Source of the DNA: Candidatus Buchananbacteria bacterium
Lineage (GTDB): Bacteria > Patescibacteriota > Patescibacteriia > 2-01-FULL-39-33 > JBAYJR01
Assembly: GCA_041665005.1 (NCBI GenBank)
Contig: JBAYJR010000001.1
Coordinates: forward strand, 4,727 to 68,726
Direction: 5' to 3'
Length of the DNA: 64,000 nt
Below are positions 16,869-64,000 of this stretch, piece by piece (the stretch's first letter is position 1; every line of letters starts with the position of its first letter). Position numbers and translations under genes: made by a program. The notes under the pieces were generated by a model that was not told the DNA's origin, did not search any database, and worked only from the letters and a program-made list of their open reading frames with translations.

Positions 16869-18050
16869 ATGTCTCAGCTCAAAGATAATTGCCAAGAACT
16901 TACCAACCTGCTTTTGGAACTTAAAAACCTTAAGTCGGAGTTTGATTTGGCTTATCAAGAAGCTTTGGTTAGTCGTGACCTGACTAAACTCAGGGGGTTA
17001 AAGATGCAAATTGAGAGCGAGGTAAGTAAATTAGAGGTTAAGGCCGATCCTTTTAATGTCGCCTTTGAAGTAGATTTGAGAAAAAAATTAGCTGAACAAA
17101 GTAATTTAGATTTTGTTGGTGCTTTCCATGAGGGCTGGGCTTTGGTTAAAAATGGTGTAGAATATTTTTATATAGATCGGACTGGCAAGGAAATTGGTCC
17201 GGTCATGTTTAGTCCTGTTAGGTATGATTATGCTCAAAATTTTTCAAACGGTTTGGCTTGGGTTGTAATAAGTGGAAAATATTTTTATATTGATTACACA
17301 GGCAAAGAAATTAGCGTTGAAAGATACGACGATGCTACTGACTTTAAGGAAGGCTTGGCGGGTGTTAAAAGAGGCAAAGAATGGTTTTTTATCAATCCTG
17401 CTGGTCAAGCAATTAATTTAGAAAGATATGATGATGTCGGCAACTTTTCTGAAGGCTTGGCTCGAGTTATAAAAAAACACACCCAGTGGTTTTATATTAA
17501 TCACGCTGGTCAAGAAATTAGCGCCGAAAGATACGATGGTGCTGAGGATTTTCATGAAGGCTTAGCTCGAGTTAGAAAAGATAACAAGTGGTTCTATATT
17601 AATCGAGTTGGTTCAGAATTAGTCTTGAAGGACTATGATTTTGTTGGTGATTTTGTTGGTGGCTTGGCCGTGGCCCGAAAGGATAAGAAATATTTATACA
17701 TTGATCACTCGGGTAAGGAAATTATTTCAGCCAAGTATAACGCGGCCGGTGGTTTTGTAGAAGGCTTGGCTTGGGTTAGGGAAGGCGAAAAATATTATTT
17801 TATTGATCGTACTGGTCAAGAAATTAGTGCCGAAAGATATGATCGTGTTGGCAACTTTTCGGAAGGCTTGGCTTTGGTTAGGGAAGACAATAAATATTAT
17901 TTTATTGATCGTGCTGGTCGAGCAATCAATCCCGAAAAATATGATTTTGCCGAAAATTTTTCAGAAGGCTTGGCTCGGGTTACAAAAGATGGCAAGTGGT
18001 TTTATATTGACCATGCCGGCCGCAAAATATTTGAGGGGGAATTGCCTTAA
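16869..18050 (+). CDS. Paralog A1: conserved N-terminal CxELT..LKxLKxEFDL module plus about nine WG-like beta-propeller repeats
   Basis: Repeats of the form [KE][WY]F[YF]I[DN]xxGxEIxxERYDxAxxFSEGLARV resemble the KWG / WG-containing repeat (PF14903); the N-terminal 60 aa are shared with A2, A3 and the B family. Confidence 0.6.
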   Translation: MSQLKDNCQELTNLLLELKNLKSEFDLAYQEALVSRDLTKLRGLKMQIESEVSKLEVKADPFNVAFEVDLRKKLAEQSNLDFVGAFHEGWALVKNGVEYFYIDRTGKEIGPVMFSPVRYDYAQNFSNGLAWVVISGKYFYIDYTGKEISVERYDDATDFKEGLAGVKRGKEWFFINPAGQAINLERYDDVGNFSEGLARVIKKHTQWFYINHAGQEISAERYDGAEDFHEGLARVRKDNKWFYINRVGSELVLKDYDFVGDFVGGLAVARKDKKYLYIDHSGKEIISAKYNAAGGFVEGLAWVREGEKYYFIDRTGQEISAERYDRVGNFSEGLALVREDNKYYFIDRAGRAINPEKYDFAENFSEGLARVTKDGKWFYIDHAGRKIFEGELP

Positions 18051-18053
18051 TCT

Positions 18054-19220
18054 ATGTCTAATCCGGGATACAATTGCCAAGAACTTACTAACCTACTTTC
18101 GGCACTAAAAAACCTTAAGTCTGATTTTAATCTGGCTTATCAAGAAATCTTGGTTAGCCATGATTTAAGTCTAGCTAGAGCGCTTAAAATAAAAGTTAAA
18201 GAAAAGGTTAATAGTTTAGAGGCAAGAACTAATCCTTTTAATATCGCCTTTGAAGTAGATTTGAGAAAAAACTTAGCTGAACAAAATAATTTAGATTTTG
18301 TTGGTGCTTTTCATGGGGGCTGGGCTAAGGTTAAAAAAGATGGAAAATATTTTTTTATTGATAAAACCGGCAAGGAGCTTAGTTCAGAAAGATATGAGAG
18401 TGTTGGTAATTTTTCGGAAGGCTTGGCTTGGGTAAGAGATTCCAGAGGGTCTATTTATATTGATCGGACGGGCCAAGAAATTAGTTTAAAAAGATATAAT
18501 GTAGCGGGTGATTTTCATGAAGGTTTAGCTAGGGTTTTTGATACTGGGGACCATTTTTTTATTAATCGTGCCGGTCAAGAAATTAGTTCCGAAAGGTATG
18601 ATTTAGCTAATAATTTTTCGGAAGGCTTTGCGGGCGTTAAACAAGCTGGAAAAATGTTTTTTGTTGACCATGCAGGTAAAAAGCTTAATTTTAAGGAAGA
18701 TTATAAAGAGGTTTGTGATTTTTCTGAAGGTTTAGCCCGAGTTTCTAAAGATAAGGTGATGTTTTTTATTGACTATACAGGTCAAAGAGGCGTCACAACG
18801 ACTTATGATAACGCTAGTAGTTTTGTTGGTGGCTTGGCTTGGGTTGAAAAAGATGGAGAAGTTTTTTATATTAATTATGCTGGTGAGAAAGTTATTTCAG
18901 TAAAATATGATTTTGCTGATGATTTTCACGAAGGTTTGGCCCGGGTAGAAAAAGATGGTAAGTGGTCTTTTATTGATCGCACCGGCCAAGAGATTAATGC
19001 TGAAAAATATGATTTTGCTTCTAATTTTTCAGAAGGTTTAGTCCGGGTTGTAAGAAATAAGGAGTGGTTTTATGTTGACCGTGCTGGTCAAGAAATTAGT
19101 GCCGAAAGATATGCCTTTGCCGAAAATTTTTCTGAAGGTTTGGCACGAGTCCAAGAACAAGAATATGGAGAATATTCTTATATCGACCATACTGGTCGTA
19201 AGATATTTGATGAGAAATAA
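18054..19220 (+). CDS. Paralog A2: same architecture as A1
   Basis: MSNPGYNCQELTNLLSALKNLKSDFNLAYQE ... followed by WG-like repeats; 3 nt gap from A1. Confidence 0.6.
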   Translation: MSNPGYNCQELTNLLSALKNLKSDFNLAYQEILVSHDLSLARALKIKVKEKVNSLEARTNPFNIAFEVDLRKNLAEQNNLDFVGAFHGGWAKVKKDGKYFFIDKTGKELSSERYESVGNFSEGLAWVRDSRGSIYIDRTGQEISLKRYNVAGDFHEGLARVFDTGDHFFINRAGQEISSERYDLANNFSEGFAGVKQAGKMFFVDHAGKKLNFKEDYKEVCDFSEGLARVSKDKVMFFIDYTGQRGVTTTYDNASSFVGGLAWVEKDGEVFYINYAGEKVISVKYDFADDFHEGLARVEKDGKWSFIDRTGQEINAEKYDFASNFSEGLVRVVRNKEWFYVDRAGQEISAERYAFAENFSEGLARVQEQEYGEYSYIDHTGRKIFDEK

Positions 19221-19229
19221 CTTTTATCT

Positions 19230-20390
19230 ATGCCCAATCCCAAACCCAACTGTCAGGAACTTACTAACTTACTTTTGGCACTAAAAAATCTTAAGCCTGA
19301 GTTTGATTTGGCCTATCAAGAAGCCTTAATTAGCCGCGATTTGACTAAACTTAGGGGATTAAAAATACAAATTGAGAGTAAGGTAAAAGAATTGGAGGCC
19401 AAGCTTGACCCTTATAACATTGAACTACGAAAGAAATTAGCCGAAGAAAATGACTTTGATTTTGTTGGTAATTTTCATGACGGCTGGGCAAAAGTCAAAC
19501 AGTGTGGAGAATGGTTTTATGTTGATTGCTCTGGGCAACGAATTAACTCGAAAGAATACGACATTGCCTGTGATTTTTCAGAAGGCTTGGCTTCGGTTTG
19601 TAAAGATCATCAATGGTTTTATATTGATTGTGCCGGCCAAGCAATTAATTTCGAAAAATATGATGTTGCCGATAATTTTTCGGAAGGCTTAGCTTGGGTT
19701 AGAAAACAGAATACCTTTTTTTATATTAATAAGATTGGTCAGGCAATTAATACTGAAACTTATAGCAACGTTAGCCGTTTTCGGGGAGGCTTGGCTCATG
19801 TGAAAAAAACTGGAAAAAATTTGCTTATTGAAGATTTGCTTATTGATAGAACCGGTAAAGAGATAAGTTTAGGAAAATATGATATGGTTGGTGATTTTTC
19901 GGAAGGCTTGGTAAGAGTTTATTGTAAAGATCAGGGATGGTTTTATGTTGACCGCATGGGTCAAGAAATTAGTGCCGAAAGATATGATGGTGCGGAGGAT
20001 TTTCATGAAGGCTTGGCTCAAGTTAAAAGACAGGGGCAGTGGTTTTACATTAACCAGTCTGGGCGAGCAGTTAATCAAGAAACATATGATTTTGCTTCTA
20101 ATTTTTCGGAAGGTCTGACCCGGGTTATGAAAAATAGAAAAATGTTCTATATTGATCACGAGGGTCAAACAGTTAATCAAGAAACATATGATGAGGCTAG
20201 AGATTTCTCGGAAGGCTTGGCTCCAGTTAGAAAAGATGATAAGTGGTTTTATATTGATCGCGCTTGCCAAGCAATTAATTCTGAAAAATATAATATTGCC
20301 TTAAATTTTTGTGGAGGATTGGCATTAGTTACAAAAGCCGGAGAACGGTTTTATATTGACCACACTGGTCGCAAAATATTTAAGGATTAA
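19230..20390 (+). CDS. Paralog A3: same architecture as A1
   Basis: MPNPKPNCQELTNLLLALKNLKPEFDLAYQE ... followed by WG-like repeats; 9 nt gap from A2. Confidence 0.6.
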   Translation: MPNPKPNCQELTNLLLALKNLKPEFDLAYQEALISRDLTKLRGLKIQIESKVKELEAKLDPYNIELRKKLAEENDFDFVGNFHDGWAKVKQCGEWFYVDCSGQRINSKEYDIACDFSEGLASVCKDHQWFYIDCAGQAINFEKYDVADNFSEGLAWVRKQNTFFYINKIGQAINTETYSNVSRFRGGLAHVKKTGKNLLIEDLLIDRTGKEISLGKYDMVGDFSEGLVRVYCKDQGWFYVDRMGQEISAERYDGAEDFHEGLAQVKRQGQWFYINQSGRAVNQETYDFASNFSEGLTRVMKNRKMFYIDHEGQTVNQETYDEARDFSEGLAPVRKDDKWFYIDRACQAINSEKYNIALNFCGGLALVTKAGERFYIDHTGRKIFKD

Positions 20391-20607
20391 TGATTTTATT
20401 CGTAGTTTAAAAACCCACTAGTTTAGCGGGTTTTTTAGTCTTTTTGGGACCGTTGACATAAGCTGATATTTAATTTTGAAATAACACTAAAATAGTTTAT
20501 AATATAGGCAGCTAAAATTAAAAACCAAAAGTCAAAAATCAAGATTGTTGGGGGCTACTAATTAGTATAATTTAACGTTTTGAGCTTTGACTTTTGATTT
20601 TTTTATT

Positions 20608-23600
20608 ATGTCATTTGTTCACCTACACACCCATTCGCATTATAGTTTGTTGGATGGTTTAAGCAAAATACCAGAATTAGTAAATCATGCCAAGGAATTG
20701 GGGATGCCGGCTTTGGCGTTAACGGACCATGGCGTAATGTATGGGGCGGTTGATTTTATGCAATCGGCGACTAAGGCGGGGATTAAGCCAATTATCGGCG
20801 TGGAGGCTTATGTTGCGCCTAATGGGCGGTTAAATAAGCGCCCTAAAATTGATGAACGGCCTTATCATTTGGTGTTATTAGCCAAAAATAATATTGGCTA
20901 TAAGAATTTGTTAAAATTAACCACAGCGGCACACTTAGAAGGTTTTTATTATAAACCGCGGATTGATTGGGAAATTTTAGAACAAAACCAGGAAGGTTTA
21001 ATCGCTTTAACCGCTTGTTTGCAAGGAGAGCTACCGCGAGCGATTTTAAATGATGATCCGAAGAAGGTTAAAGAATTAATTGAGCGTTTTCAAAAAATAT
21101 TTAAAGAAGATTTTTATTTGGAAGTTCAGCATCACCCTAGTTTGCCCAAGCAAAGGCAGGTTAATCAAGAAATTTTTAGTTTAGCTAAAGCCAATGGTAT
21201 TGGGGTAGTGGCCACCAACGACATTCATTACACCAAGGCTAGCGACGCCGAAGCCCAGGATATTTTGTTGTGCATCCAAACCAAAAAAGTTTTAACCGAT
21301 CCGGATCGTCTAAGTTATTTGGGTGAGGATTTTTCAATGCGTTCGCCCGAGCAAATGCAAAAAGATTTTAGCGATCATCCGGAAGTCATTAGTAATACTT
21401 TAAGAATCGCTGAACAATGCAATTGGCAGTTGGAATTTGGTAAAACCTTTTTGCCGCATTTTCCTTTACCGGCCGGAGTAACCCCAGAAAAATATCTGAG
21501 CGAGATGTGCTATAAAAATTTACCAACTAGATATCCGCAGGCGGTAACCGGCCCGGCGGCGACGGAAGTAAAAGAGCGTTTAGAATATGAATTAGGCATC
21601 GTGGGTAAAACTGGTTTTGCTTCATATTTTTTGATTGTACAAGATTTTATTAATTGGGCCAAAAACAATGGCGTGGTAGTTGGTCCGGGGCGTGGTTCCG
21701 CCGCCGGTTCGATCGTTGCTTTTTTAACTAATATTACTAATATTGATCCAATTAAGTATAATTTGCTGTTTGAAAGATTTTTAAATCCCGAACGTATTTC
21801 CATGCCGGATATTGATACTGATTTTGCCGATATTCGTCGAGATCAGGTATTACGGTATGTAGAACAAAAATATGGTAAAGATCACGTGGCGCAAATTATT
21901 ACTTTTGGGACGATGGCGGCTCGGGCGGTAATACGTGACGTGGGTCGAGCCATGAGCTTGCCTTATAGCTATTGCGATAAGGTGGCCAAGTTTATTCCGA
22001 TGATGACGCCGCTTAAAGAAGCCTTGGCAACCGTGCCGGAGCTAAAGGAGGTTTTAGCCACTGAGGATGGAAAAAAATTAATGGACATTGCTTTGCGCTT
22101 GGAAGGGGTAGCTAGACATTCCTCAGTTCATGCTTGTGGAGTAGTTATTACTAAAGAGCCACTAGTAGAATATTTGCCGCTACAATATTCACCCAGTGGT
22201 GATGAAGCAGTAATTACCCAATATTCTTTGCATCCGGTAGAGGATTTAGGTTTATTGAAAATGGATTTTTTAGGTTTAAAAAATTTAACAATCATTGAGC
22301 GCACTTTAGAAGTGGTAGAAAAAGTTCGGGGACAAAAAATTGATATTAATCAGTTGCCCTTGAATGATCAGGCCACTTTTAAATTATTACAAGAAGCAGA
22401 AACTACTGGAGTATTTCAGATAGAAAGTTCGGGGATGAAAAGATATTTAAAACAATTAAGGCCGACGGAATTGGAAGATATTATTGCCATGGTGGCTTTG
22501 TATCGTCCCGGTCCAATGGAATATATTCCTGATTATATTGAAGGTAAGCATGGCCGTAAGAAAATAGAATATTTAGATCTTAGATTAAAGCCAATTTTGG
22601 AAAAAACTTACGGTATTGTGGTTTATCAAGAGCAATTGATGCAAATTGCCCGTGATTTGGCCGGTTTTACTTTAGGTCAGGCAGATGTTTTGCGTAAGGC
22701 AGTTGGTAAAAAGAATTTAAAACTTTTGAAAGAGCAGGAAGAAAAAATGATTGCCGGCATGATTAAAAATAAAATTACCCAAAAAGTAGCGCAACAAATT
22801 TGGAATTTTATTTTGCCTTTTGCGGCTTATGGGTTTAATCGTTCTCACGCGGCTTGTTACGCAATGATTGCTTATCAGACCGCTTATTTGAAGGCACATT
22901 TTGCCCCAGAATTTATGTCTTCGTTATTAACTTCTGACCAAGGTGATATTGAGCGCGTAGCCGAAGTTGTTGAGGAATGCCGGCAAATGGGGATTGCGGT
23001 TTTACCGCCAGATATAAATGAAAGTTTTAAAACTTTTACGGTGGTGGCCGAAACACTAGAGACGGATCAGCCGCGGTTGCGTTTTGGTTTATTGGCGATT
23101 AAAAATATGGGAGAAAATATTGTCAGTGCGATTATTAGTGAACGCAAGGCCAATGGTGTTTATAAAAATTTAGAAGATTTATTGTCGCGGGTTAAAAATA
23201 AGGATTTAAATAAAAAATCTTTGGAGGCTTTAATTAAGTCTGGCAGTTTGGATAGCTTTGGTGAACGCAATCAATTGCTAAAAAATATTGAAAAAATGTT
23301 ACAGTTTACCAAGGAAGTAAATAATCACGAAGAAACTCAACAGGTTAGTTTGTTTAACGAGTTACCACAGGCTATGTTGGTTTCTTTGCGTTTAACCGCT
23401 TATCCGGAGGCCTCTAAGGCTGAAAAATTGGCCTGGGAGAAGGAGTTTTTGGGTTTATTTATCTCTGAACACCCTTTGAAGGATTATGAGGCAGTTTTAC
23501 AGGGCTTGACGGTTAACACTAATCAATTATTCTCAAAGGCGAGTCAGGTGGTTAAAATTGCCGGAATCGTTACGGCGGTTAAAAGAATCTTTACTAAAAA

Positions 23601-53205: not shown

Positions 53206-54480
53206 ATGGTTAAGGCAGTTAAAAAATTTAACTTAGTAATTATTGGCGGTGGCGCCAGTGGTTTAGTGGCAGCAATTGCCGCTAAACGTCGCCAACCGGA
53301 TTTAACCGTAGCAGTGCTAGAGCGGACTTTTGCTTTGGGTCGCAAGGTGTTAATTACCGGCGCGGGACGTTGCAATTTGGCTAATGTTAAGCTTGCTCAA
53401 AATCCCGAGCGTTATTATCAGGGTGAGACTACGGTAATTAAATCAGTGTTTGAGCAATTTGGTTATACTCAGTTGATAAATTTTTTTGCGGAGTTGGGGA
53501 TTGAAACTTATCAAGAAGTTAAAAATAATAGCGGTAAAATTTATCCGGTGACTGATTCAGCTAAAACAATTGTAGAATTATTAGTTGATGAAGCTAAGCG
53601 GTTAGGCGTTAAATTTTTATTACAAACGGAAGTTAAAAAGCTTAAAAAAACTGGTTTACAATTTAGTCTATTAACAACCACGCCAGAAGGAAAAGAGGAA
53701 ATAATAGCCGAGCAAGTAATTTTAGCCGCCGGCGGTAAAACCTATCCGGCCTTAGGGGCTAATGGCTCGGGTTATGATTTGGCGCAAAGTTTGGGGCACC
53801 AGATAGTGCCGGTTACTTGCGCTGGTGTGCCAGTGGTGGCAAAAAATTCTTTATCGCAATTATTGCAAAAAACTAAAGTTAATTTAGCCGTAACCTGCTT
53901 AATTGCTGGTCAGCCCGTGGCGCAAACTATTAATGATGTAATGTTTACGGATTACGGTTTGTCCGGCACGGCAATTTTAGAAATCAGTCGGCCCATTGCG
54001 AAAGCCTTACAGCAAAATTCTCAAAGCAAAATTATTATTGTTTTAAATTTTTTTCCGGAGCAAACCGTAGCTCAAGTTAAAACTAAATTATTTACCCGGT
54101 GGCAAAAGCGTCCCGAACAAACTTTAGAGAAAAGCTTATTGGGTTTTTGGCCGCCTAAAGTGCCAGTGGCTTTGTTAAAAGTTTTAAAAATTGAACCAAA
54201 TTTATTAGTTAAAGATTTGAGTCAGGCACAAACAAAATGGTTAATAGACAATTTGACTGCTTATGAAATAAAAGTAAGTGGCATTCGCGGTTGGCAGGAG
54301 GCCGAATTTAGCGTGGGTGGCGTGCCGGCCGCCGAAGTTAAGGTTAAAACTTTGGAATCAATTAAAGTGCCCGGTTTATATTTGGCGGGTGAAATTTTGG
54401 ATGTTGATGGTCCGTTAGGCGGTTATAATTTAGCTTGGGCTTGGGCCTCGGGTTACGTGGCTGGGCAATTACAAAAATAA
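53206..54480 (+). CDS. HI0933/BaiN-like NAD(FAD)-utilising flavoprotein
   Basis: LVIIGGGASGLVAA dinucleotide-binding motif and overall HI0933-like pattern. Confidence 0.75.
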   Translation: MVKAVKKFNLVIIGGGASGLVAAIAAKRRQPDLTVAVLERTFALGRKVLITGAGRCNLANVKLAQNPERYYQGETTVIKSVFEQFGYTQLINFFAELGIETYQEVKNNSGKIYPVTDSAKTIVELLVDEAKRLGVKFLLQTEVKKLKKTGLQFSLLTTTPEGKEEIIAEQVILAAGGKTYPALGANGSGYDLAQSLGHQIVPVTCAGVPVVAKNSLSQLLQKTKVNLAVTCLIAGQPVAQTINDVMFTDYGLSGTAILEISRPIAKALQQNSQSKIIIVLNFFPEQTVAQVKTKLFTRWQKRPEQTLEKSLLGFWPPKVPVALLKVLKIEPNLLVKDLSQAQTKWLIDNLTAYEIKVSGIRGWQEAEFSVGGVPAAEVKVKTLESIKVPGLYLAGEILDVDGPLGGYNLAWAWASGYVAGQLQK

Positions 54481-55070: not shown

Positions 55071-55096
55071 CTGTTGAAAGCTTAGTTAAGGCCTAA

Positions 55097-55125
55097 TTGG
55101 ACTAACAGTTTAGTCCAATTTTTTG
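55097..55125 (+). terminator. Intrinsic terminator
   Basis: ttggactaa-cagt-ttagtccaa plus TTTTTTG. Confidence 0.7.
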
Positions 55126-55143
55126 TTTTATTATTTACGTATT

Positions 55144-55207
55144 TTTTGTCATTCCGGCCTACGAGCCGGAATCTAGCCCCTTTGTCATTCCTGGCTTGAC
55201 CAGGAAT
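55144..55207. repeat. Two tandem 36 nt repeats, each TTTGTCATTCC followed by a palindromic hairpin (CCGGC...GCCGG and CCTGG...CCAGG)
   Basis: tttgtcattccggcctacgagccggaat / tttgtcattcctggcttgaccaggaat; the stems are kept by compensatory changes. Confidence 0.7.
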
Positions 55208-55567
55208 CCGGATTAATTAATTTTGTCACTATTACTCCAGAAGTGATTACTTCTCAGCAGAACATTCTCCTTATTATTTCTTGTTCTTTTGGCAGCAAAA
55301 GAACCAAAACTGCTGGGTGACAAATTCACTAGTTGCTACTTAGGATATGTAGTGAATTAATCCTTGACGTTCAATTGTCACCCAGACCCAGGGTGGTTCT
55401 GCCCGCGTTAAATATAAATAATAATAAAAACACCCAATAGAACTTAGATTGGTTGTCGGACTAAGGATGGTTATCTGGGGTTTAGGTCGGTTGTAAAAAG
55501 TATGGGTTTTTGTTAAGATAGACAAAGCTTAACTGCTAAACATCAGTCAAATTTTTATAGTATTTAT

Positions 55568-56635
55568 ATGCCCCAACTTTGCCCCGAACTCACTACCAAA
55601 CTAGCCCCCCTCAAACAACTCAAACAAGAGTTTGATTTGGAATTAACCAAAGCTCAGAGTTTAAGTCCTAATAAACCAGAGGATTTAGTTTTGGTTAGGG
55701 AGGCTAAGATTAAATTAGAACAAGCCTCTCAAGCTTTTCAAGATCTCCAAAACGAACTCTGGTTAGAAACCCCCGAACTAACCCCAGAAAACCTTAAAGC
55801 CCAGTATGAAGCCCAAGTAGACATTCTCCGTAAAAACAACCTCCTAAAAACCCTCTCCACTGGCGAATTAGGTATTGAAGCAATTGATAAGCGGGAATAC
55901 CCCATACCAACTCTAGAACAAATAGAGTTTTTTATCTTAAAAAATAAAGAATTTTTGAAAACCAAAATTCCACAAGGCTTTGTTAAACTAATTATTGTTC
56001 CCTTTGGCTTGCCAATTAGTTCCCTAATAGAGGCTTATAGCAAGGCCTTAATCGAATGCCACAAACAAGGCTGTTTATATGATGCCCAATTCCTACATTT
56101 TGAGTTTAATGCAAAACCTATCCATGATTATACCGGATGGGTCAAAGCCGAAGCCACAGGAGAGCTAGTATATTTCCCCAAAGAATACTCAAAAACTACT
56201 CATCAAGGTAAAACTAAGCAAGAACTTTTACCTACTCAAGCTTGGCAAATTCTAATGCTTGAAGACTCGCCCGATATTCCAGATAAAGGCAAGGGCAAAA
56301 CCGTTAATGGTCGTCAGCAACCAGAAGCTAACCAATCACCCAATGACTATCTTAAACAACTCCAAACCAACCTTCAGTATAAAGGCGAACAAGGCTTAAC
56401 CCCAGAATCCTGGCTAGTTTATGGTTTAGATTATTTAAAAGAAGGACGCCAAATAATTGATAGCCGGCAAGATTACTATAGAGGCTGTATTATGGTTAAT
56501 AGTTATTTTAAAGAAACTGGTTATGTGCCGACAGCCTACCCTGGCCATGGCGATATGTCGGTCACTTTGGATCGGAAGAGCCCGAACGATTCCTGGACTA
56601 TCGGTGCCACCCGCTTTGCAGTAAGTATTCTTTAA
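55568..56635 (+). CDS. Paralog B1: conserved N-terminal MPQLCPELTTKL ... EFDLELTK module plus an unknown C-terminal domain of about 300 aa
   Basis: N-terminus homologous to A1-A3; C-terminal domain shared with B3 and B4 at high nucleotide identity. Confidence 0.6.
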   Translation: MPQLCPELTTKLAPLKQLKQEFDLELTKAQSLSPNKPEDLVLVREAKIKLEQASQAFQDLQNELWLETPELTPENLKAQYEAQVDILRKNNLLKTLSTGELGIEAIDKREYPIPTLEQIEFFILKNKEFLKTKIPQGFVKLIIVPFGLPISSLIEAYSKALIECHKQGCLYDAQFLHFEFNAKPIHDYTGWVKAEATGELVYFPKEYSKTTHQGKTKQELLPTQAWQILMLEDSPDIPDKGKGKTVNGRQQPEANQSPNDYLKQLQTNLQYKGEQGLTPESWLVYGLDYLKEGRQIIDSRQDYYRGCIMVNSYFKETGYVPTAYPGHGDMSVTLDRKSPNDSWTIGATRFAVSIL

Positions 56636-56645: not shown

Positions 56646-57833
56646 ATGCCCCAACTTTGCCCCGAACTTACAACCAAGCTAGCCTCCCTCAAACAACTCA
56701 AAGCAGAGTTTGATTTGGAATTAACCAAAATTAAAAATTTAGATTCTAAAAAATCAGATGATTTAGTTTTGGTTAGGCAAATAAAAAATCAATTGGAGTC
56801 GACCTTGAAAAGTATCCAAGAAATTATGGTAACAGTTGATTGGAAAGATTTTTATTACAGAGAACTAACTTCTGTAGAAAACAAAAATAATTATCATGAA
56901 GAGCAGGTTCTTGAAGGAAACGGTAATGGAGTGTTAGCTTTGCAGGTTTTACATGGTGGACTACGGTTGGTTTCTGGTGGCGGCGATGGTACTATTAAGC
57001 TTTGGGAGTGGGAGCTAAATCTTCCTAGTCGGTATAAAGAGAAGCAAACTTTTTCGGAGCGTTACTCAGTTTCAGCCCTGCAGGTTTTACCTGATGGTAA
57101 TATTGTTTCGGCCGCTAGTAATGGGACTATGAAGATTTGGGATCGGAATATTTATGGTTTGGTTGAAACTTCGCAGATTATTAGAGAACATATGCAGGGT
57201 TATGTACAAACACTTAAGGTTTTTCCTAGTGGTCGAATTGTTGCCGGGATTAGTAATGGTGGTATTGAAATTTGGGATAAAGACAGTCAGGGTCAATATT
57301 ATCAGGCCCAGGGTATTGCCGGGTCGGGAGGTCATGTGCTGACCTTGCAAACTTTACCGGACGGTCAGATCTTTTTTAGCAATGGTAAAATCAATATTTT
57401 GCATCAGGACAGTTGGAATCAGTATGATAGATTACAAGAAATTGATAACCAAGATCTCTTCACTCTGGTTTTGCAAGTCTTGCCCGATGGTCGGATCGTT
57501 TCGGGCACTCTGCAAGGCGACATTCAAATATGGGATCAAGATGCCAAAGGTAAATACCAATTAACTCAATCTTTTTTTGGTCACAGAAATTCTGTACGAG
57601 ATTTGCAAGTCTTGCCCGATGGTCGGATTGTTTCTGGTGGCGGGGATTACACGGTTAAAATTTGGGAACAAGACCAAGCGGGTATTTATCGTAACATTGA
57701 AACACTTTCTAGTGCTAAGGTTACCAATGACCACGGATCGGTCTATACTTTGCAGGTTTTGGCTGATGGTCGGATTTTTGCGGGTTATGGTAATAATAAT
57801 GTTATAATCTGGGATGGTGATAAGGTAAAATAA
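56646..57833 (+). CDS. Paralog B2: same N-terminal module fused to a WD40-type beta-propeller
   Basis: Repeats GDGTIKLWEW, SNGTMKIWD, GGIEIWDKD, GDIQIWDQD, GGDYTVKIWEQD and LQVLPDGRIVSG. Confidence 0.65.
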   Translation: MPQLCPELTTKLASLKQLKAEFDLELTKIKNLDSKKSDDLVLVRQIKNQLESTLKSIQEIMVTVDWKDFYYRELTSVENKNNYHEEQVLEGNGNGVLALQVLHGGLRLVSGGGDGTIKLWEWELNLPSRYKEKQTFSERYSVSALQVLPDGNIVSAASNGTMKIWDRNIYGLVETSQIIREHMQGYVQTLKVFPSGRIVAGISNGGIEIWDKDSQGQYYQAQGIAGSGGHVLTLQTLPDGQIFFSNGKINILHQDSWNQYDRLQEIDNQDLFTLVLQVLPDGRIVSGTLQGDIQIWDQDAKGKYQLTQSFFGHRNSVRDLQVLPDGRIVSGGGDYTVKIWEQDQAGIYRNIETLSSAKVTNDHGSVYTLQVLADGRIFAGYGNNNVIIWDGDKVK

Positions 57834-57843
57834 ATAAATTTAT

Positions 57844-58926
57844 ATGCCCAGACTTTGTCCCAAACTTACAACTAAACTAGAATCCACCAAAGCGCTTAAA
57901 AAAGAGTTTGATTTGGAATTTACTAAAATTAGAAATCTAAACTCTAAAAAATCCGAGGATCTTATTTTCATCAGAGACATTAAATCCAACCTGAACCAAA
58001 CCCTCCAAGACCTCCAAAACCAACTCTGGCTAGAAACCCCCGAATTAACCCGAGAAAACCTTAAAGCCCAATATGAATTTCAGAAAAACCTTCTTATTAA
58101 GGCTGGCTTAGCAAAACCTCTCTCCACTGGTGAATTAGGTATTGAAGCAATCGATAACAAAGAATACCCCATACCCACCCTAGAACAGATTGAAGAAATG
58201 ATGCTAGAAAAACGTAAGTTATTAGAAACCAAAATCCCACAAGGCTTTGTTAAGTTAGTTCTTGTTCCTTTCGGCTTGCCAATTAGCTCCCTAATAGAGG
58301 CTTATGACAAGGCCCTAACGGAATATCATCAGCGAGGTGAGCTCCTAGACACCCAAAATAAACCTTTGGGGCTTGATAAAGAGATTGGTAAAAAGTTTAT
58401 TTATGATAATGGTGCTAAATATTATATCCAAGCCGAAGCCACGGGAGATTTAGTATATTTCCCTCAAGAATACTCCAAAATTACTCATCAAGGTAAAACC
58501 AAAAAACAACTCCTAGCCACCCAAGCCTGGCAAGTCCTACTACTTGAAGACTTGCCCGACCTTCCAGATCAAGGTCAAGGTAAAATCATAGCTAAACGCC
58601 AGCAACCAGAAGCTAACCAAATACCCAAGAAGTATCTTAGACAACTCCAGACCGACCCTCAGTATAAAGGTGAACAAGGTTTAACTCCAGAATCCTGGCT
58701 AGTTTATGGCTTAAGTCACTTAGTGCAAAGTAAACAAATGATTGAGAGCGGGGAAAGAGAATATGGTTATAGGGGTTGTTATTTACTTGATAGTTGTTTT
58801 AAAAAATCTGGTGACGTGCTGTACGCCTATTTATATCGTAGCGATGCGCGGGTCAGCTTGGTTCGGAGTGCTCCGGATAGTCACAATACCTACGGTGCCG
58901 GTCGGTTTTCGGTGAGTATTTCTTGA
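57844..58926 (+). CDS. Paralog B3: same architecture as B1
   Basis: MPRLCPKLTTKL ... then ETPELTRENLKAQYE ... GFVKLVLVPFGLPISSLIEAY. Confidence 0.6.
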   Translation: MPRLCPKLTTKLESTKALKKEFDLEFTKIRNLNSKKSEDLIFIRDIKSNLNQTLQDLQNQLWLETPELTRENLKAQYEFQKNLLIKAGLAKPLSTGELGIEAIDNKEYPIPTLEQIEEMMLEKRKLLETKIPQGFVKLVLVPFGLPISSLIEAYDKALTEYHQRGELLDTQNKPLGLDKEIGKKFIYDNGAKYYIQAEATGDLVYFPQEYSKITHQGKTKKQLLATQAWQVLLLEDLPDLPDQGQGKIIAKRQQPEANQIPKKYLRQLQTDPQYKGEQGLTPESWLVYGLSHLVQSKQMIESGEREYGYRGCYLLDSCFKKSGDVLYAYLYRSDARVSLVRSAPDSHNTYGAGRFSVSIS

Positions 58927-58989: not shown

Positions 58990-59000
58990 TTTTCACTTTA

Positions 59001-59024
59001 AAAGCCTGTAGGCTTTTTTATTTT
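59001..59024 (+). terminator. Leader hairpin plus U-tract (attenuator-like) between the promoter and the RBS of the small peptide gene
   Basis: aaagcc-tgta-ggcttt followed by tttatttt. Confidence 0.5.
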
Positions 59025-59042
59025 ACCAAGGAGGTAAACAAA

Positions 59043-59183
59043 TTGATTAAAAACAATCAAACAACAGGGGATGGTAAGCAGGATAAGGCAAACAGCTGTC
59101 AGAGGCATTTTGAGTACCAAATGCCCGATGGCAGTATTATCTGCTATCATTGTGGGGAAGCCTTAATAAAGGCTAAACCCTAA
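59043..59183 (+). CDS. Small Cys/His peptide (46 aa; LIKNNQTTGDGKQDKANSCQRHFEYQMPDGSIICYHCGEALIKAKP)
   Basis: Strong RBS AAGGAGG 8 nt before TTG; below the track size cutoff; terminator at 59198-59228. Confidence 0.4.
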   Translation: MIKNNQTTGDGKQDKANSCQRHFEYQMPDGSIICYHCGEALIKAKP

Positions 59184-59294
59184 ATTTTCCCCGAATCACC
59201 GGCGTTAATATTTAATGCCGGTTTTTTATTTGACAAAGAGTCTTGGCCAATGTTATACTAAATATGATAAATCATACTAATCATATTAAACCAT

Positions 59295-59576
59295 ATGAAC
59301 AAAAAAATCAGCGGACACCTTGATGCCCAGTGCTATGGTGTGACCACCTTGGGCGAGCGGGGACAAATTGTTATTCCTAACGAATTGCGCCAAGCTTTGC
59401 GTTTGCGAAGTGGTGATAAACTGCTAGTATTTAGTCGTTTTGATAAACTAATTGCTTTGGTTAAAGCCACAGAGTTGGAAAGTTTTTTAAATTATATGAT
59501 GAAAAAGTTTGGCCCAAAAATCATCCCAGCCCAGTATCGTTCGCATTTAGCCAAGGCTAAAACTAAGAAAAAATAA
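59295..59576 (+). CDS. AbrB/MazE/SpoVT-family DNA-binding protein
   Basis: Swapped-hairpin motif VTTLGERGQIVIPNELRQALRLRSGDKLLVF; promoter TTGACA-18-TATACT at 59232. Confidence 0.65.
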   Translation: MNKKISGHLDAQCYGVTTLGERGQIVIPNELRQALRLRSGDKLLVFSRFDKLIALVKATELESFLNYMMKKFGPKIIPAQYRSHLAKAKTKKK

Positions 59577-59639
59577 CTGGCCAAATTGGGCTAAAAGTGC
59601 TATAGTAATTAAATAATATTATAATTTTTAATAAAATTT

Positions 59640-61217
59640 ATGAGTATGGTAAAAGTGTTTAAAAACAAATGGTTTTGGGTTGGCGCGGTAATTGTTATAT
59701 TGATTATCGGCTATTTTTGGTTAGCCGCCGGCAAGAGCACAGTAGTATATACTACGGAGCCGGTTAAACGAGCTAATATTATTCAAACCGTAACGGCTAC
59801 TGGCGAAGTACAAAGCGCTACGGAAATTAATTTAAATTTTAAAAATTCTGGTTGGTTGGCTAGATTAAATGTCAAAGTGGGTGACAAAGTTAAAGCCGGA
59901 CAAGAATTAGCGCAGTTACAAAATGGTTCGTTAGTGGCTTCGGTAATGGCGGCGCAAGCTAATTTGACTAAAGTTTTGGCCGGTACAGCCGCCGAAGATA
60001 TTAAAATTTACGAACAAAGCGTGGCCAAAGAACAAGCGGCTTTGGATACTTTATTGAGTAAGCGTGATCAGGATTTAGTCACCTCTCGTAACAAAGTATT
60101 AGACGCTTTAAATAATGCCAATTTTGCGGCGGCCGTGGCCTTGAATACGGTTTATAAAGATTTAATTGATACTAATAATATCAGCAATTTAAATGTTATG
60201 CAGACTAGTTTGTATAACAATATTTCGCCTGGTTACAGTTTAGCCAATAGCAAATTAATTTCGGCCAAAAATTTTTATACCACGGCGGCTAGCACTAGAA
60301 ATGATTTAGATATTATTGCGGCAGTTAACGCTACCAAGGAAGCCTTAAATCAGTTGACAATTTTATTAAGTAATTCTTTTGAAGTGGCCGATTCAATCAT
60401 TCTTAATAGTACTTATACCCAAAGCAAAAAGGATACCATCAAAACCGAAATTACTACCGAACAAGGTAATACTAATGCTAATCTAACGGCGGTAGAAACG
60501 GCTCGGGCGACTTTGGTTAACGGTGCGGCTTCGTATGAAAGTCAAATTAAAACGCAACAGGCAGCCTTGGCTTATGCCCAGGCTCAGTTGGCTCAAAAAC
60601 AAGCTCCGGCTAAGCAATACGATGTGGATTATTATCGTGCGCAGTTGCTACAAGCGCAGGCTAATTTAGGAGATACGATTATTCGGGCGCCGATTGATGG
60701 GGTAATCACCAAAAAGAATTACGAGGTAGGTGATCAAGTTTCACAAACCAACCCGGTGTTAGTTATGATGGGTAATAGCAACTTAGAAATTGAAGTTAAC
60801 ATTCCAGAATCGGACGTGGCTAAATTAAAAGTTGGTCAATCGGTGGATATTACTTTGGATGCATTTGGGGAAGATATTCCTTTTAAAGGCCAGGTGACTT
60901 TTATCGATCCGGCCGCTACCAAAATTTCGGACGTGGTTTATTATAAAACCAAAGTTACTTTAGATGACAATAAAGAGGCGATTAAACCGGGTATGACGGC
61001 TAATTTAACAATTACTACGGCTAATCGCGAAAATGTTTTGGTTACCTTGCAACGTGCGGTAATTAGTAAAGATGGTCAAAAAACGGTACAGGTCTTAGTG
61101 GCCGGTCAGCCGGTAGAAAAGCCAGTTGAATTGGGTTTGTGGGGTGATGAAGGTTTGGTGGAAGTATTAAGCGGTTTAACTGAGGGGGAACAAGTAGTTA
61201 CCTTTACTAAAAAATAA
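59640..61217 (+). CDS. HlyD/MacA-family membrane fusion protein (periplasmic adaptor)
   Basis: N-terminal TM helix, long coiled coil, barrel-sandwich block IIRAPIDGVITKKNYEVGDQV. Confidence 0.8.
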   Translation: MSMVKVFKNKWFWVGAVIVILIIGYFWLAAGKSTVVYTTEPVKRANIIQTVTATGEVQSATEINLNFKNSGWLARLNVKVGDKVKAGQELAQLQNGSLVASVMAAQANLTKVLAGTAAEDIKIYEQSVAKEQAALDTLLSKRDQDLVTSRNKVLDALNNANFAAAVALNTVYKDLIDTNNISNLNVMQTSLYNNISPGYSLANSKLISAKNFYTTAASTRNDLDIIAAVNATKEALNQLTILLSNSFEVADSIILNSTYTQSKKDTIKTEITTEQGNTNANLTAVETARATLVNGAASYESQIKTQQAALAYAQAQLAQKQAPAKQYDVDYYRAQLLQAQANLGDTIIRAPIDGVITKKNYEVGDQVSQTNPVLVMMGNSNLEIEVNIPESDVAKLKVGQSVDITLDAFGEDIPFKGQVTFIDPAATKISDVVYYKTKVTLDDNKEAIKPGMTANLTITTANRENVLVTLQRAVISKDGQKTVQVLVAGQPVEKPVELGLWGDEGLVEVLSGLTEGEQVVTFTKK

Positions 61218-61226
61218 ATTGGTTTT

Positions 61227-61952
61227 ATGGATAAGCAAACAATCATAAAAATAGTTGATTTGTGTAAGGATTATGTTAATGAGGGAGTGGTTACCGATGT
61301 TTTACACGGCATTACTTTTGAAATTAAAGCTGGTGAATTTGTGGCGATTATGGGGCCGTCGGGTTCTGGTAAATCTACTTTAATGCATATTTTAGGATTT
61401 CTAGATTCGCCGACTACCGGTGAATATTATTTTGATGGTGATGACGTAAAAAAATTAACGGATGAAGAAATGGCTAAGGTGAGAAATCAGAAAATTGGGT
61501 TTATTTTTCAACAGTTTAATTTGTTACCCAAAACCTCGGTTTACGACAATGTTAAATTGCCGCTGCTATATGGCAAGTATACTGATATTGATGGACGAGT
61601 CAAAAAGGCGATTACGGCCGTTGGTTTGGAACATCGGTTAAATTATTTATCCAACCAATTATCGGGCGGAGAAAAACAGCGAGTAGCCATTGCTCGATCT
61701 TTAGTGACTGATCCCAAAGTAATTTTTGCGGATGAACCGACAGGCAACCTTGACTCTAAATCCGGCAAACAGATTATGAATATTTTAAACCAGTTAAACG
61801 AAGAGGGCCACACTATCATTTTGGTAACGCACGAAACTTATACCGCCGAACATGCTAAGCGTATTTTAAAAATTAAAGACGGTTTGATGGTGGAAGACAG
61901 ATTAGTAGATGAACAAACGAGAAAAAATGCTTTGGCGGGTATTTTGAAATAG
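61227..61952 (+). CDS. ABC transporter ATP-binding protein (MacB/LolD/FtsE-like)
   Basis: Walker [10 protein letters not shown], signature [15 protein letters not shown], Walker [12 protein letters not shown]. Confidence 0.9.
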
Positions 61953-61966
61953 TAATAATTGTTTTT

Positions 61967-63211
61967 ATGGATCTTATTGGTAATCTTAATTTATCTTATA
62001 AAAATTTAACGGTAAATAAAACCCGGACTTTACTGACCATGTTGGGCTTGATTATTGGTATTTCTTCGGTGATTATTATTATGTCGGTCGGGGCCGGAGC
62101 CCAGAGCTTGGTTTTGAACCAGGTTAAAAGTGTGGGTACTAATTTAATTGGCGTGTTACCGGGGGCTTCTGACGAAAATGGTCCACCGGCGACGGCTTTT
62201 GGTTCGGTAATTACGACTTTAAAATATGATGACGCGGTTGCTTTGGCCAAAAAAAGTAATGTGCCTTATGCGGTGGCGGTGGCGCCTTATGTTAAGGGTA
62301 CGGGCACGGTTACTTGGCAGTCGCATTCGTTAGACACTAATTTTAGTGGTACCTCGGCTAGTTATATAGAAGTTGAAGAGGGGGCTAAAGTAATTAGTGG
62401 TCGATTTTTTAATCTTGATGAAGAAAAAAATTTAGCGCGGGTAGCGGTGTTGGGCAGTGAAGTGCGGGATAAATTATTTGAACAAAACGATCCCATTGAT
62501 CAACAAATTAAAATTAAAAATGAAACTTTTAAAGTAATTGGCGTGATGGAGCCACGAGGCGTTTCGGGTTTTCAAAATCAAGATGACCAGATTTTTATTC
62601 CGGTTTCTACCGCGCAGAAATTATTGTTAGGCATAAATTATTTAGGTTTTATTCGGGTGCGGGTAGATAGTGTTGACAACATTCCGCAAACCATTGAAGA
62701 TGTTAAGGCCACTTTGCGTTACCAACATAACATTAAAAAAGCTAAAGACGATGATTTTAGTGTGCGGAGCGCCACGCAAATGTTGGATGTTTTTGGCACC
62801 GTAACCAGTGCTTTGAGTTTATTTTTAACGGCGGTAGCAGCTATTTCTTTGTTGGTTGGCGGAATTGGGATTATGAATATTATGTTAGTAGCGGTAACCG
62901 AACGGATTCGCGAAATTGGCTTGCGCAAAGCTGTAGGAGCAACTCGGCGTGATTTATTGGAGCAGTTTTTAATTGAAACGGTAATTATTACTTCTTTTGC
63001 CGGTTTGCTAGGTTTAATTTTAGGCATAGTCTTTTCTTTTTTAGTGGCAATGGTTGCGCAATATTTAGGTTATGCTTGGGATTTTGTAGTGCCGGTCTGG
63101 TCAATTATTTTATCTTTTGGTATTGCAGTAATTATTGGTTTTTTATTTGGGTTATACCCAGCCTATCAAGCGGCCAAATTAGATCCGGTAGTCGCATTGC
63201 GTAAAGAGTAG
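61967..63211 (+). CDS. ABC transporter permease (FtsX/MacB-type)
   Basis: N-terminal TM helix, large periplasmic domain, C-terminal FtsX domain with three TM helices. Confidence 0.8.
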   Translation: MDLIGNLNLSYKNLTVNKTRTLLTMLGLIIGISSVIIIMSVGAGAQSLVLNQVKSVGTNLIGVLPGASDENGPPATAFGSVITTLKYDDAVALAKKSNVPYAVAVAPYVKGTGTVTWQSHSLDTNFSGTSASYIEVEEGAKVISGRFFNLDEEKNLARVAVLGSEVRDKLFEQNDPIDQQIKIKNETFKVIGVMEPRGVSGFQNQDDQIFIPVSTAQKLLLGINYLGFIRVRVDSVDNIPQTIEDVKATLRYQHNIKKAKDDDFSVRSATQMLDVFGTVTSALSLFLTAVAAISLLVGGIGIMNIMLVAVTERIREIGLRKAVGATRRDLLEQFLIETVIITSFAGLLGLILGIVFSFLVAMVAQYLGYAWDFVVPVWSIILSFGIAVIIGFLFGLYPAYQAAKLDPVVALRKE

Positions 63212-63231
63212 ATTATTTTTAATAAATTTAT

Positions 63232-64000
63232 ATGCCCAGACTTTGTCCCAAACTTACAACTAAACTAGAATCCCTCAAAAAACTCAAACAAGAGTTTGAT
63301 TTGGAATTGACTAAAGTTAAAAACCCAGACTCCAAAAAGTCCAATGATCTTATTTTCATCAGAGATATTAAAGCAAAACTAAACCAAACCCTTCAAGACC
63401 TCCAAACTGAACTCTGGCTAAAAACCCCCGAACTAACTAAAGAAAATCTTGAAGCCCAATATGAATTCCAGAAGAACCTTCTTCTAAACTCAGGCCTGCT
63501 AAAAACCCTTTCTACTGGTGAATTAGGTATTAAAGCAATTGATAAGCAGGAATATCCCATACCTACCTTAGAGCAGGTTGAAGAAAATATTATAGATAAA
63601 AGAGAGTTGCTTGAAGCTAAGGTTAATCAAGGCTTTGTTAAACTAGTTCTTGTCCCCTTTGGTTTGCCAGTCAGCTCTTTAATAGATGCTTACGACAAGG
63701 CCCTGATGGAACACTATCAACAAGGTGAGTTATTGGACGCCCAAAATAAATTATTAAATATTTATAAAAGGCCTGATGATGAGGAGTTTATTAGTGATCA
63801 TACTGGATACCCCGAAGCCGAAGCTAAAGGGGATTTAGTATATTTTCCCAAAAAATTCTCTGCTAATCATCAAGGTAAAACCAAGCAAGAACTTTTACCC
63901 ACCCAAGCCTGGCAAGTTCTATTACTTGAAGACTTGCCGGATCTTCCAGATAGAGATCAAGGCAAAACCAAGGCTGGTCGCCAGCAACCGGAAGCTTGCC
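63232..64000 (+). CDS. Paralog B4: same architecture as B1/B3, 3' end beyond the window
   Basis: MPRLCPKLTTKLESLKKLKQEFDLELTK ...; about 85% nucleotide identity to B3 over the aligned stretches; ORF is open to the window end. Confidence 0.6.
   Translation, partial: MPRLCPKLTTKLESLKKLKQEFDLELTKVKNPDSKKSNDLIFIRDIKAKLNQTLQDLQTELWLKTPELTKENLEAQYEFQKNLLLNSGLLKTLSTGELGIKAIDKQEYPIPTLEQVEENIIDKRELLEAKVNQGFVKLVLVPFGLPVSSLIDAYDKALMEHYQQGELLDAQNKLLNIYKRPDDEEFISDHTGYPEAEAKGDLVYFPKKFSANHQGKTKQELLPTQAWQVLLLEDLPDLPDRDQGKTKAGRQQPEAC

Follow-up and report, generated by a model that had tools for sequence, protein, structure and literature searches.

The window analysed here, a stretch of 64,000 nucleotides from a Candidatus Buchananbacteria MAG, carries seven genes that begin alike and end differently, which raises the question of what a shared N-terminal module does on unrelated bodies. 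The host is a CPR bacterium (Patescibacteria). Genomes of this group are extremely reduced, and little is known of how its members recognise hosts or defend themselves. All seven genes are on the forward strand. Gene A1 (16869..18050, 393 aa) carries the module at approximately aa 1-60 (nt 16869-17048), followed by nine WG repeats. A2 (18054..19220, 388 aa; module nt 18054-18230) starts 3 nt past A1, and A3 (19230..20390, 386 aa; module nt 19230-19415) starts 9 nt past A2, both with WG repeats behind the module. Further downstream, B1 (WCW02_00335; 55568..56635, 355 aa; module nt 55568-55762) continues into a body of about 290 aa (the B body), B2 (56646..57833, 395 aa; module nt 56646-56828; start 10 nt past B1) into a WD40 propeller, and B3 (WCW02_00345; 57844..58926, 360 aa; module nt 57844-58029; start 10 nt past B2) again into a B body. 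B4 (WCW02_00370; 63232..64000), also a module with a B body, is cut by the end of the window (full length 362 aa). ORF calls, alignment and HMM scanning agreed with the original prediction in placing a common N-terminal module on these seven ORFs. The spacing of 3-20 nt that had been given for genes within each cluster held for the adjoining module genes, with gaps of 3, 9, 10 and 10 nt, but not for B4, which lies outside the B1-B3 cluster, 4.3 kb downstream, and starts 20 nt past the stop codon of a gene for an FtsX-type ABC permease.

The module comprises approximately 57 aa at the N-terminus of all seven ORFs, and in the alignment of their first ~60 aa the residues M1, C, L, T, L, K, L, K, F, L, D, L, R and K were invariant. 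A six-frame HMM scan of the window detected exactly seven copies, scoring 73-78 bits (A1, 74.0; A2, 73.7; A3, 77.7; B2, 74.4; B3, 77.1; B4, 76.7). Against a profile made without A1-A3, the modules of these three proteins scored 44.6-49.1 bits (with the database size taken as 1.84e9, E 1e-6 to 5e-8) and the best unrelated background ORF about 8 bits. Judged by this profile comparison, the relatedness of the seven modules is therefore far beyond chance, which settles the doubt, raised with the original prediction, whether the N-termini are significantly related at all. An exhaustive search of 1.84e9 proteins resulted in 211 protein clusters with the module at E<=1e-3; the module profile, used in a word-indexed homolog search, brought up no more than five short proteins, which were of little information. 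The module was N-terminal in 173 of 181 matches, and the eight 'internal' matches look like cases of mis-called start codons. Its consensus begins with a short free N-terminus, usually M-P/S-x-x, and an almost invariant Cys (at position 3-8 in 159 of 168 matches), and from the Cys reads C-x-E/Q-L/I-x-x-x-L/Y-x-x-L-K-x-L-K-x-E-F-D-L-E ... D/N-L ... L ... L-W. A dN/dS of 0.27 indicated purifying selection. The few named sources of module proteins were Patescibacteria, and as far as these show the family is restricted to this group. Pattern-based scans of a viral contig collection for the module and the B body gave zero copies, an absence that says little on conflict, either way.

The module had been described as no named domain, and this was confirmed: neither it nor the B body matched any family in Pfam, NCBIfam, PADLOC or PHROG. 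Residues 1-60 gave only weak coiled-coil noise against Pfam-A at E<=1, in a Pfam copy that may lack some models of the effector-associated domains (EADs; EAD1-11/bDLD), and profiles of the module and bodies gave only noise against PDB sequences. The best PDB profile match of the module, 22 aa long, was to the ELL2/occludin OCEL helix at E 0.007 and was taken as a coiled-coil chance match. A literature search for an earlier description of the module family found nothing relevant. The module, which no database describes, and the B body are two domain families that could be defined now. In the AlphaFold (AF2) model the module forms a two-helix antiparallel hairpin (helices 6-31 and 37-64), with moderate confidence for the monomer (pLDDT 54-76); the predicted helices are long and amphipathic, and the conserved Cys is predicted to cap helix 1.

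A Pfam scan recovered the three body types that had been proposed, namely WG repeats in A1-A3, WD40 in B2 and a body without a family in B1, B3 and B4. The WG_beta_rep model PF14903 (gathering score 25.6) scored 243.8 bits on A1 (E 7.7e-74), 203 bits on A2 (E 4.3e-61) and 154.7 bits on A3 (E 5.2e-46), with seven to nine repeats in each and E-values in the range 1e-46 to 1e-74. The WD40 model PF00400 (gathering score 27) scored 107.2 bits on B2 (E 2.5e-31). In the metagenome matches the module was fused to approximately 24 body clusters, including WG repeats, WD40, 'GLDSxxAWExR' alpha-repeats, RNI-type LRRs (LRR_6) and a superfamily ending in a C-type-lectin/FGE-like domain, and almost all of these fusion partners were binding scaffolds. 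No NTPase, protease or membrane anchor was found with the module in ~190 module proteins and ~260 kb of the MAG, and no NTPase or vWA domain among the matches listed (150 of 211) and the same ~260 kb. Nuclease, TIR and pore-forming domains fused to the module were absent from the matches examined, and among the matches listed nearly all module proteins were <=483 aa. The proposal of a common N-terminal adaptor on swappable binding bodies was thus borne out on a larger scale, with 38 module genes of five body types in the ~260 kb sampled from the MAG in addition to the ~24 body clusters.

The AlphaFold model of the B body consisted of an alpha/beta N-terminal half and a C-type-lectin/FGE-like C-terminal half. 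The latter was assigned to the C-type lectin/FGE-sulfatase fold by structural similarity, and the alpha/beta half had no PDB match. FGE-sulfatase (PF03781) and DUF1566 (PF07603) were absent at E<=10 from 25 family members, and hhalign joined the B, C and E body families via common regions with 89.5-95.7% probability. Column entropy in aa 301-346 of the B bodies was 1.35-2.21 bits, compared with 0.3-1.0 elsewhere; in B1 this hypervariable C-terminal segment, located in the CLec-like domain, spans 56468..56605 on the forward strand. Among B paralogs dN/dS was 0.82 in the C-terminal ~45 aa, 0.24 in the core and 0.24-0.27 elsewhere, so that the description of the family as rapidly diversifying fits that C-terminal stretch of the B bodies and not the remainder. 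The polar residues K133, Y202, H212, K217, R249, E274 and E280 were invariant in the B body and could mark an enzymatic site, not a pure binder.

The B genes had further been taken to be about 85% identical in DNA, by recent duplication or gene conversion. The identity of B1, B3 and B4 is in fact 73-79%, reaching 85.6% only in the first 180 nt of B3 versus B4, and the duplications are old, since the median dS among B paralogs is 0.7-0.95. These values do not support a recent duplication or gene conversion. The 5' gene ends were not more conserved than the remainder at the DNA level, and there is therefore no sign of a recombination or phase-variation cassette. Module genes of the MAG occurred in mixed tandem arrays of two to five genes, such as [B][WD40][B] and [B][WD40][B][C][B], in which WD40 genes almost always adjoined a B or C gene, and B diversity was held as ~20 germline paralogs. 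The modules grouped by genome, not by body type: identity across different bodies within the MAG was 56-74%, as against 25-40% to the modules that other organisms carry on a body of the same type, and WG-linked modules were a class of their own. This grouping could stem from recombination, gene conversion or vertical divergence after lineage-specific domain shuffling. The arrays were surrounded by housekeeping genes (PheT/DnaE, IleRS, Mur ligases), not by defence islands, and the only recurrent accessory neighbours were Mur-ligase paralogs. In other genomes the module often occurred once or twice, amid housekeeping genes, a distribution that fits a common partner better than obligate hetero-assembly. 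Locus tags up to WCW02_05020 in steps of 5 imply a total of ~1,000 genes in the MAG, and on this count, inferred from locus-tag numbering, the family would take about 4% of the genes.

The reading that we favour, and hold to be plausible if somewhat short of an even chance, is that the module serves for coupling, as a homotypic or common-partner adaptor, and that the binding domains behind it form a germline repertoire. The module would bind its own copies or one shared lineage-specific partner and would thereby assemble interchangeable ligand-binding bodies into common complexes, which the conserved Cys may stabilise through a disulfide, a metal or some other link that depends on the thiol. 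The B bodies would serve for binding, with a conserved core and a C-terminal face diversified among germline paralogs, and the whole array would act as a hard-wired recognition repertoire, for host interaction or conflict sensing. Homology of the modules, their strict N-terminal position, the invariance of the Cys and purifying selection support a coupling role at the level of sequence. Further support comes from fusion partners that are nearly all binding scaffolds, from the hhalign links between body families, from the concentration of variability in aa 301-346 and from arrays of mixed body types. Binding of modules to each other or to a common partner is what we infer, as are the part played by the Cys and the biological purpose. 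By analogy, the lineage-specific closeness of the modules is the behaviour described for homotypic coupling adaptors, the EADs (PMC7159879). A core component bearing the module, as the target of coupling, was found neither in ~190 module proteins nor in ~260 kb of the MAG. We regard as rather unlikely a bolder proposal, that the Cys-capped hairpin is a new CPR-specific assembly or targeting device which mounts binders on a common scaffold or the cell surface as a germline 'antibody-like' repertoire, made up of propellers, LRRs, alpha-solenoids and lectin-fold domains whose one face is hypervariable. If true, an ultra-small episymbiont would need neither a DGR nor an NTPase switch to recognise its hosts or its invaders, and the spending of ~4% of genes on the family would be explained. 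Because a conserved handle is joined to classic recognition scaffolds, one of them with a hypervariable lectin-fold face, the family is a strong candidate either for a minimal immune repertoire or for the molecular interface on which the episymbiotic lifestyle rests.

A conserved Cys close to the N-terminus, which in some copies follows an L (MPQLC), is also what an ordinary lipoprotein signal would display, and a classical signal or lipoprotein sequence had been named as a possible refutation. Lipoprotein signals (Lgt/Lsp lipobox) have a positively charged n-region, a hydrophobic h-region of 7-22 aa and then L-[AS]-[GA]-C. In the module only 2-7 residues stand ahead of the Cys (position 3-8), with neither a positively charged n-region nor a hydrophobic h-region, and what follows the Cys is a charged, conserved helix where a mature lipoprotein would have a linker. 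Over the first 30 aa of the seven proteins the mean Kyte-Doolittle hydropathy was negative (-0.16 to -0.60), there was no hydrophobic stretch and the lipobox was lacking; these features rule out a lipoprotein or Sec signal, to which we give next to no probability. More weight, if still a low probability, falls to a CPR-specific signal for non-classical export or surface attachment that works without a leader: a T4SS-like or pilus-related machine might recognise the module, or the Cys might serve as an anchor, and adhesin-like binders would reach the episymbiont surface or the host. However, the seven proteins had no hydrophobic segment even over their full length (maximum 19-residue Kyte-Doolittle mean <1.8), and known signals do not resemble a charged helical hairpin of 57 aa that is under purifying selection. 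Substrates of type VII secretion (WXG100/LXG) are helical hairpins with W-x-G in the turn, and their genomes contain EssC/T7SS genes; on the first of these two marks, the turn of the modelled hairpin has no conserved W-x-G. Secretion genes do not recur beside the arrays, where the Mur ligases alone are repeated, module-less B homologs are also without signal peptides, and WD40 and RNI-type LRR bodies are typically cytosolic.

Expanded paralogs with a hypervariable binding face, together with WD40 genes placed almost always beside a B or C gene, would also suit an NTPase-less immune or conflict system, in which the hairpins oligomerise on activation like Death/CARD or NLR CC domains; WD40, LRR and alpha-repeat members may then be sensors, and CLec-type members sensors or effectors. 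Conflict systems also contain FGS/CLec, beta-propeller, HEAT and TPR sensor scaffolds (PMC7159879). We nevertheless think such a system unlikely, as PADLOC gave no match, no match examined had an NTPase, nuclease, protease, TIR or pore-forming domain fused to the module, and the arrays lie between PheT/DnaE, IleRS and Mur ligases, outside defence islands. Diversity-generating retroelements (DGRs) are reportedly common in CPR, and the B genes share with DGR variable proteins both the CLec/FGE fold and variability at the C-terminal position equivalent to the variable region of DGR-diversified lectin-fold proteins. The hallmark of a DGR target protein is a cognate template repeat (TR) with a reverse transcriptase (RT) and adenine-specific VR/TR mismatches. 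In ~260 kb of the MAG we detected no template-repeat-like copy of the 3' ends (the best matches were paralogs, ~70%) and no ORF with reverse-transcriptase motifs, and the paralogs differ along their whole length (dS 0.7-0.95). A DGR as the source of the C-terminal variability was rejected for the sampled sequence, and we consider it very improbable.

The coupling adaptor proposed here has its closest counterpart in the EADs of bacterial NTP-dependent conflict systems (Kaur, Burroughs, Iyer and Aravind 2020; PMC7159879). EAD1 has up to 22 paralogs per genome, and EAD copies resemble each other more within one lineage or neighbourhood than between lineages. The module resembles EADs as a small, non-enzymatic, all-helical terminal domain (57 aa, helices 6-31 and 37-64), present on adjacent genes with different partners and in many paralogs per genome, with lineage-specific nearest copies (56-74% within the MAG versus 25-40% outside) and with partners that include FGS/CLec, beta-propeller and HEAT-like domains. 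Unlike the EADs, it was on no core component (VMAP/vWA-MoxR, iSTAND, GAP1 GTPase, Ubl) among the matches listed (150 of 211) and in the ~260 kb of the MAG. It also differs in that its partners are binding scaffolds and not enzymatic effectors, in having no Pfam sequence match, a strictly N-terminal position and an invariant N-terminal Cys, and in its named sources, which are Patescibacteria, whereas those of EADs are multicellular bacteria.

The F-box and SOCS-box substrate receptors of eukaryotes and some symbiont effectors likewise combine an N-terminal helical adaptor of ~50 aa with WD40, LRR or other bodies in large paralog families. The F-box (PF00646/PF12937, ~45 aa) gave no Pfam match at E<=1, and the hairpin is predicted to have two helices, not three; CPR bacteria are not known to have Skp1/cullin partners. 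The B bodies differ from DGR variable proteins and FGE/DUF1566 C-type-lectin-fold binders (Mtd, TvpA, TaqVP, Lcl C-terminal domain) in that they have no Pfam FGE-sulfatase/DUF1566 match, hold their diversity in ~20 germline paralogs with no RT or template repeat in ~260 kb, and have a novel alpha/beta N-terminal half that matched nothing in the PDB. From phage receptor-binding proteins and Mycoplasma families of variable surface proteins the module proteins are set apart by the lack of viral-contig copies in pattern-based scans, by having no signal peptide or lipobox, and by 5' gene ends that are not extra-conserved in DNA and give no sign of a cassette. With these proteins and families the module proteins share a conserved N-terminus on variable C-terminal bodies and tandem multi-gene arrays in a reduced genome.

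The ORF listing placed all seven genes at the stated positions on the forward strand: A1 (16869-18050), A2 (18054-19220), A3 (19230-20390), B1 (55568-56635), B2 (56646-57833), B3 (57844-58926) and B4 (63232 to the window end). The first ~60 residues of the seven proteins, which comprise the module, a Cys-capped helical N-terminus, agree, the initiator Met aside, at 14 invariant positions, among them the Cys and the LK.LK.EFDL core. A module profile searched against the six-frame translation of the window detected exactly seven copies (73-78 bits), and a profile lacking A1-A3 still retrieved A1-A3 with 44.6-49.1 bits (E of 1e-6 to 5e-8, scaled to 1.84e9 sequences), the best unrelated ORF reaching ~8 bits. 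The original observation that all seven N-termini are related thus held, and these scores indicate true homology of the A-type and B-type modules. Pfam confirmed WG repeats (WG_beta_rep, PF14903) in A1-A3 and a WD40 propeller in B2, as had been proposed, and assigned no family to the C-terminal bodies of B1, B3 and B4.

The spacers A1/A2, A2/A3, B1/B2 and B2/B3 are 3, 9, 10 and 10 nt long. B4 lies apart from B1-B3, 4.3 kb downstream. The interval (59295-63211) holds an AbrB/SpoVT-like gene (93 aa) and then an operon of HlyD-like adaptor, ABC ATPase and FtsX-permease, to which we assign, on sequence, a putative MacAB-like identity. Since B4 starts only 20 nt past the permease stop codon, it may be co-transcribed with this exporter. 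At another locus of the same MAG (L012), a B gene is followed within a few kb by an ABC ATPase and by a paralog of ORF 53206-54480 of the window. B1 is preceded by 497 nt of intergenic DNA (55071-55567), a length unusual for such a compact genome; the Rfam scan of the whole window gave no match in this region. It contains a perfect 11-nt hairpin with a T-run behind it (55095-55120), apparently the terminator of the preceding gene, two tandem copies, 36 nt apart, of a TTTGTCATTCC..GG hairpin unit (55145-55210) and, across 55313-55385, an inverted repeat of 11 nt, CTGGGTGACAA/TTGTCACCCAG.

B1 is identical to WCW02_00335, a hypothetical protein of the Candidatus Buchananbacteria MAG (CPR/Patescibacteria), from which ~20 more B-type paralogs with 50-69% identity to B1 were retrieved. 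The window and ten further loci obtained by a metagenome scan, ~260 kb together, contained 38 module-bearing genes, with bodies of the B type (20), WD40 (8), WG (4), a short C body of ~240 aa (4) and 'GLDSxxAWExR' alpha-repeats of ~420 aa (2). They form tandem arrays of 2-5 genes on the same strand in which body types are mixed, such as B-WD40-B, WD40-C-WD40-B and B-WD40-B-C-B. The arrays are flanked by housekeeping genes, namely PheT/DnaE in the window, IleRS immediately before the array at L006 and Mur ligases elsewhere, and a search of the sampled MAG loci for a recurrent non-family neighbour yielded none except Mur-ligase paralogs. With ~1,000 genes in the genome, a figure inferred from locus-tag numbering, the family accounts for ~4% of them, an unusual scale. 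One MAG protein, P0058 (WCW02_01930, 81 aa), is a module without a body, and further short module-only proteins occurred among the database matches; these may act as free adaptors or as competitors, or else be gene remnants.

Searched exhaustively with HMMER, a set of 1.84e9 representative proteins yielded 211 clusters with the module at E<=1e-3, 39 of them at E<=1e-10. Among the 181 matches with at least 35 bits the module was N-terminal in 173, and the upstream extensions of the other 8 look like mis-called starts. The Cys occupied position 3-8 in 159 of 168 matches and was absent in only 3; residue 2 was mostly Pro or Ser. A signal peptide or lipobox was rejected, as only 2-7 residues precede the Cys, there is no hydrophobic segment and N-terminal hydropathy is negative. 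When the module was trimmed off, local BLAST clustering of the remainders resulted in 24 body clusters, including WG repeats, WD40, RNI-type LRR (PF13516), alpha-repeats, DUF5701 and several unannotated families, which bears out the predicted shared adaptor on swappable bodies. The alpha-repeat body (L008 11071-12342; L015 11097-12347; P0061, P0124, P0157, P0197) consists of 8-12 tandem units of ~30 aa with the signature G-L-D-S-x-x-A-W-E-x-R; the units matched no Pfam family above threshold, look like HEAT/ARM-type repeats and seem to make up a repeat family not described before. P0096 (564 aa) carries two modules (residues 1-52 and 329-380) with a different body behind each, and looks like two neighbouring family genes joined by loss of a stop codon or by an artefact of assembly or gene calling.

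The named sources of the module were Patescibacteria, Nealsonbacteria, Saccharibacteria and one bin labelled Gammaproteobacteria. The clear copies in the latter (L002 and L003, CAZSPT01 contigs of an 'uncultured Gammaproteobacteria' MAG) point either to a CPR contig that was binned wrongly or to a rare case outside Patescibacteria, and the distribution is CPR-restricted as far as could be seen. Outside the Buchananbacteria MAG, module genes are single or paired amid housekeeping genes; pattern-based scans of a viral contig collection found no module or B-body copies. Some B-body homologs lack the module: they have nothing in its place or a different coiled-coil extension, and none has a signal peptide. 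Module and body are thus separable units. Module sequences group by genome and not by body: within the MAG, identity between modules across B, WD40, C and alpha-repeat bodies is 56-74%, whereas identity to modules on like bodies in other organisms is only 25-40%. The WG-linked modules are a second class, 77% identical among themselves and 33-42% to the first.

For B1, AlphaFold2 with an alignment of 25 sequences (pLDDT 88.4, pTM 0.82) predicted disorder for residues 1-5, helices at 6-31 and 37-64 forming the module hairpin (moderate confidence, pLDDT 54-76), and a high-confidence alpha/beta body. In fold comparison the C-terminal half of this body resembled the Legionella Lcl C-terminal domain (6.4) and the DGR (diversity-generating retroelement) variable proteins TvpA (6.6), Mtd (5.7) and TaqVP (4.7). 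Profile-profile comparison linked B to the short C bodies (95.7% probability, through the C-terminal ~74 columns), B to the E family (93.9%, through N-terminal body regions) and C to E (89.5%, through the C-terminal part), and more weakly D to E (64.6%). The links among B, C and E indicate that several seemingly different bodies form one superfamily with a common terminal lectin-like domain, whose typical C-terminal motif is G-x-R-x-x-V-x-V.

The ~85% DNA identity originally reported for B1, B3 and B4 was not reproduced: we found 73-79%, with 85.6% confined to the opening 180 nt of the B3/B4 pair. Median dS among B paralogs was 0.7-0.95, and this high synonymous divergence speaks for old copies, neither recent duplicates nor conversion products as had been claimed. 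Column entropy across 17 paralogs was highest at B1 residues 301-345 and had a lesser peak at 181-195. The 301-345 segment is the C-terminal face, where DGR-diversified lectin-fold proteins have their variable region. Nei-Gojobori dN/dS over 153 paralog pairs was 0.82 for residues 301-346 (>1 in 46 of 144 pairs), so that the label 'rapidly diversifying' fits this segment but neither the module (0.27) nor the body core (0.24). The values point to a conserved handle and core and a relaxed or diversifying C-terminal face. The B bodies are best read as lectin-fold binders with a diversified face, although their invariant polar residues may reflect an enzymatic role.

Homotypic coupling adaptors such as effector-associated domains (EADs) are described in PMC7159879 as terminal, shared by adjacent genes and similar in a lineage-specific manner. 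The module is likewise strictly terminal, is under purifying selection, occurs on adjacent genes with different bodies and shows lineage- and class-specific similarity, and on these four features we favour a coupling handle. Such a handle would join the binding bodies to each other or to one lineage-specific partner, and the invariant Cys could add a thiol-dependent link. A leaderless export or anchoring signal would suit the adhesin-like folds and an episymbiont's way of life, but no finding speaks for export and we regard it as doubtful. Bearing on that hypothesis, genes for a VirB4/TrwB-like ATPase and for two large proteins of the T4SS_pilin family (PF18895) lie near a module-WD40 gene in another CPR genome (L022, 5470-7881 and 15203-18954), a single instance that is not evidence of linkage. 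It also seems unlikely that the family is an NTPase-less immune system: its sensor scaffolds are those of conflict systems already described, yet neither an effector nor a PADLOC match turned up. That the B genes are targets of a DGR is very improbable, as the sampled MAG DNA contained neither a template-like copy of the B 3' ends nor an ORF with reverse-transcriptase motifs.

In line with the original reading, the module is not a named domain: neither it nor the B body matched Pfam-A, NCBIfam, PADLOC, PHROGs or the PDB sequence set, and a literature search found no description of the family. An adaptor with interchangeable binding domains is a well-known principle; this family departs from it in its Cys-capped hairpin, its lack of a core enzyme, its predicted germline lectin-fold repertoire and its distribution, confined to CPR as far as could be seen. 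Unlike EADs, the module has no copy on an NTPase, vWA or GTPase core, a defining EAD criterion, and no Pfam sequence match. We would therefore say that the putative handle works like an EAD and is architecturally like an F-box, while belonging to neither family.
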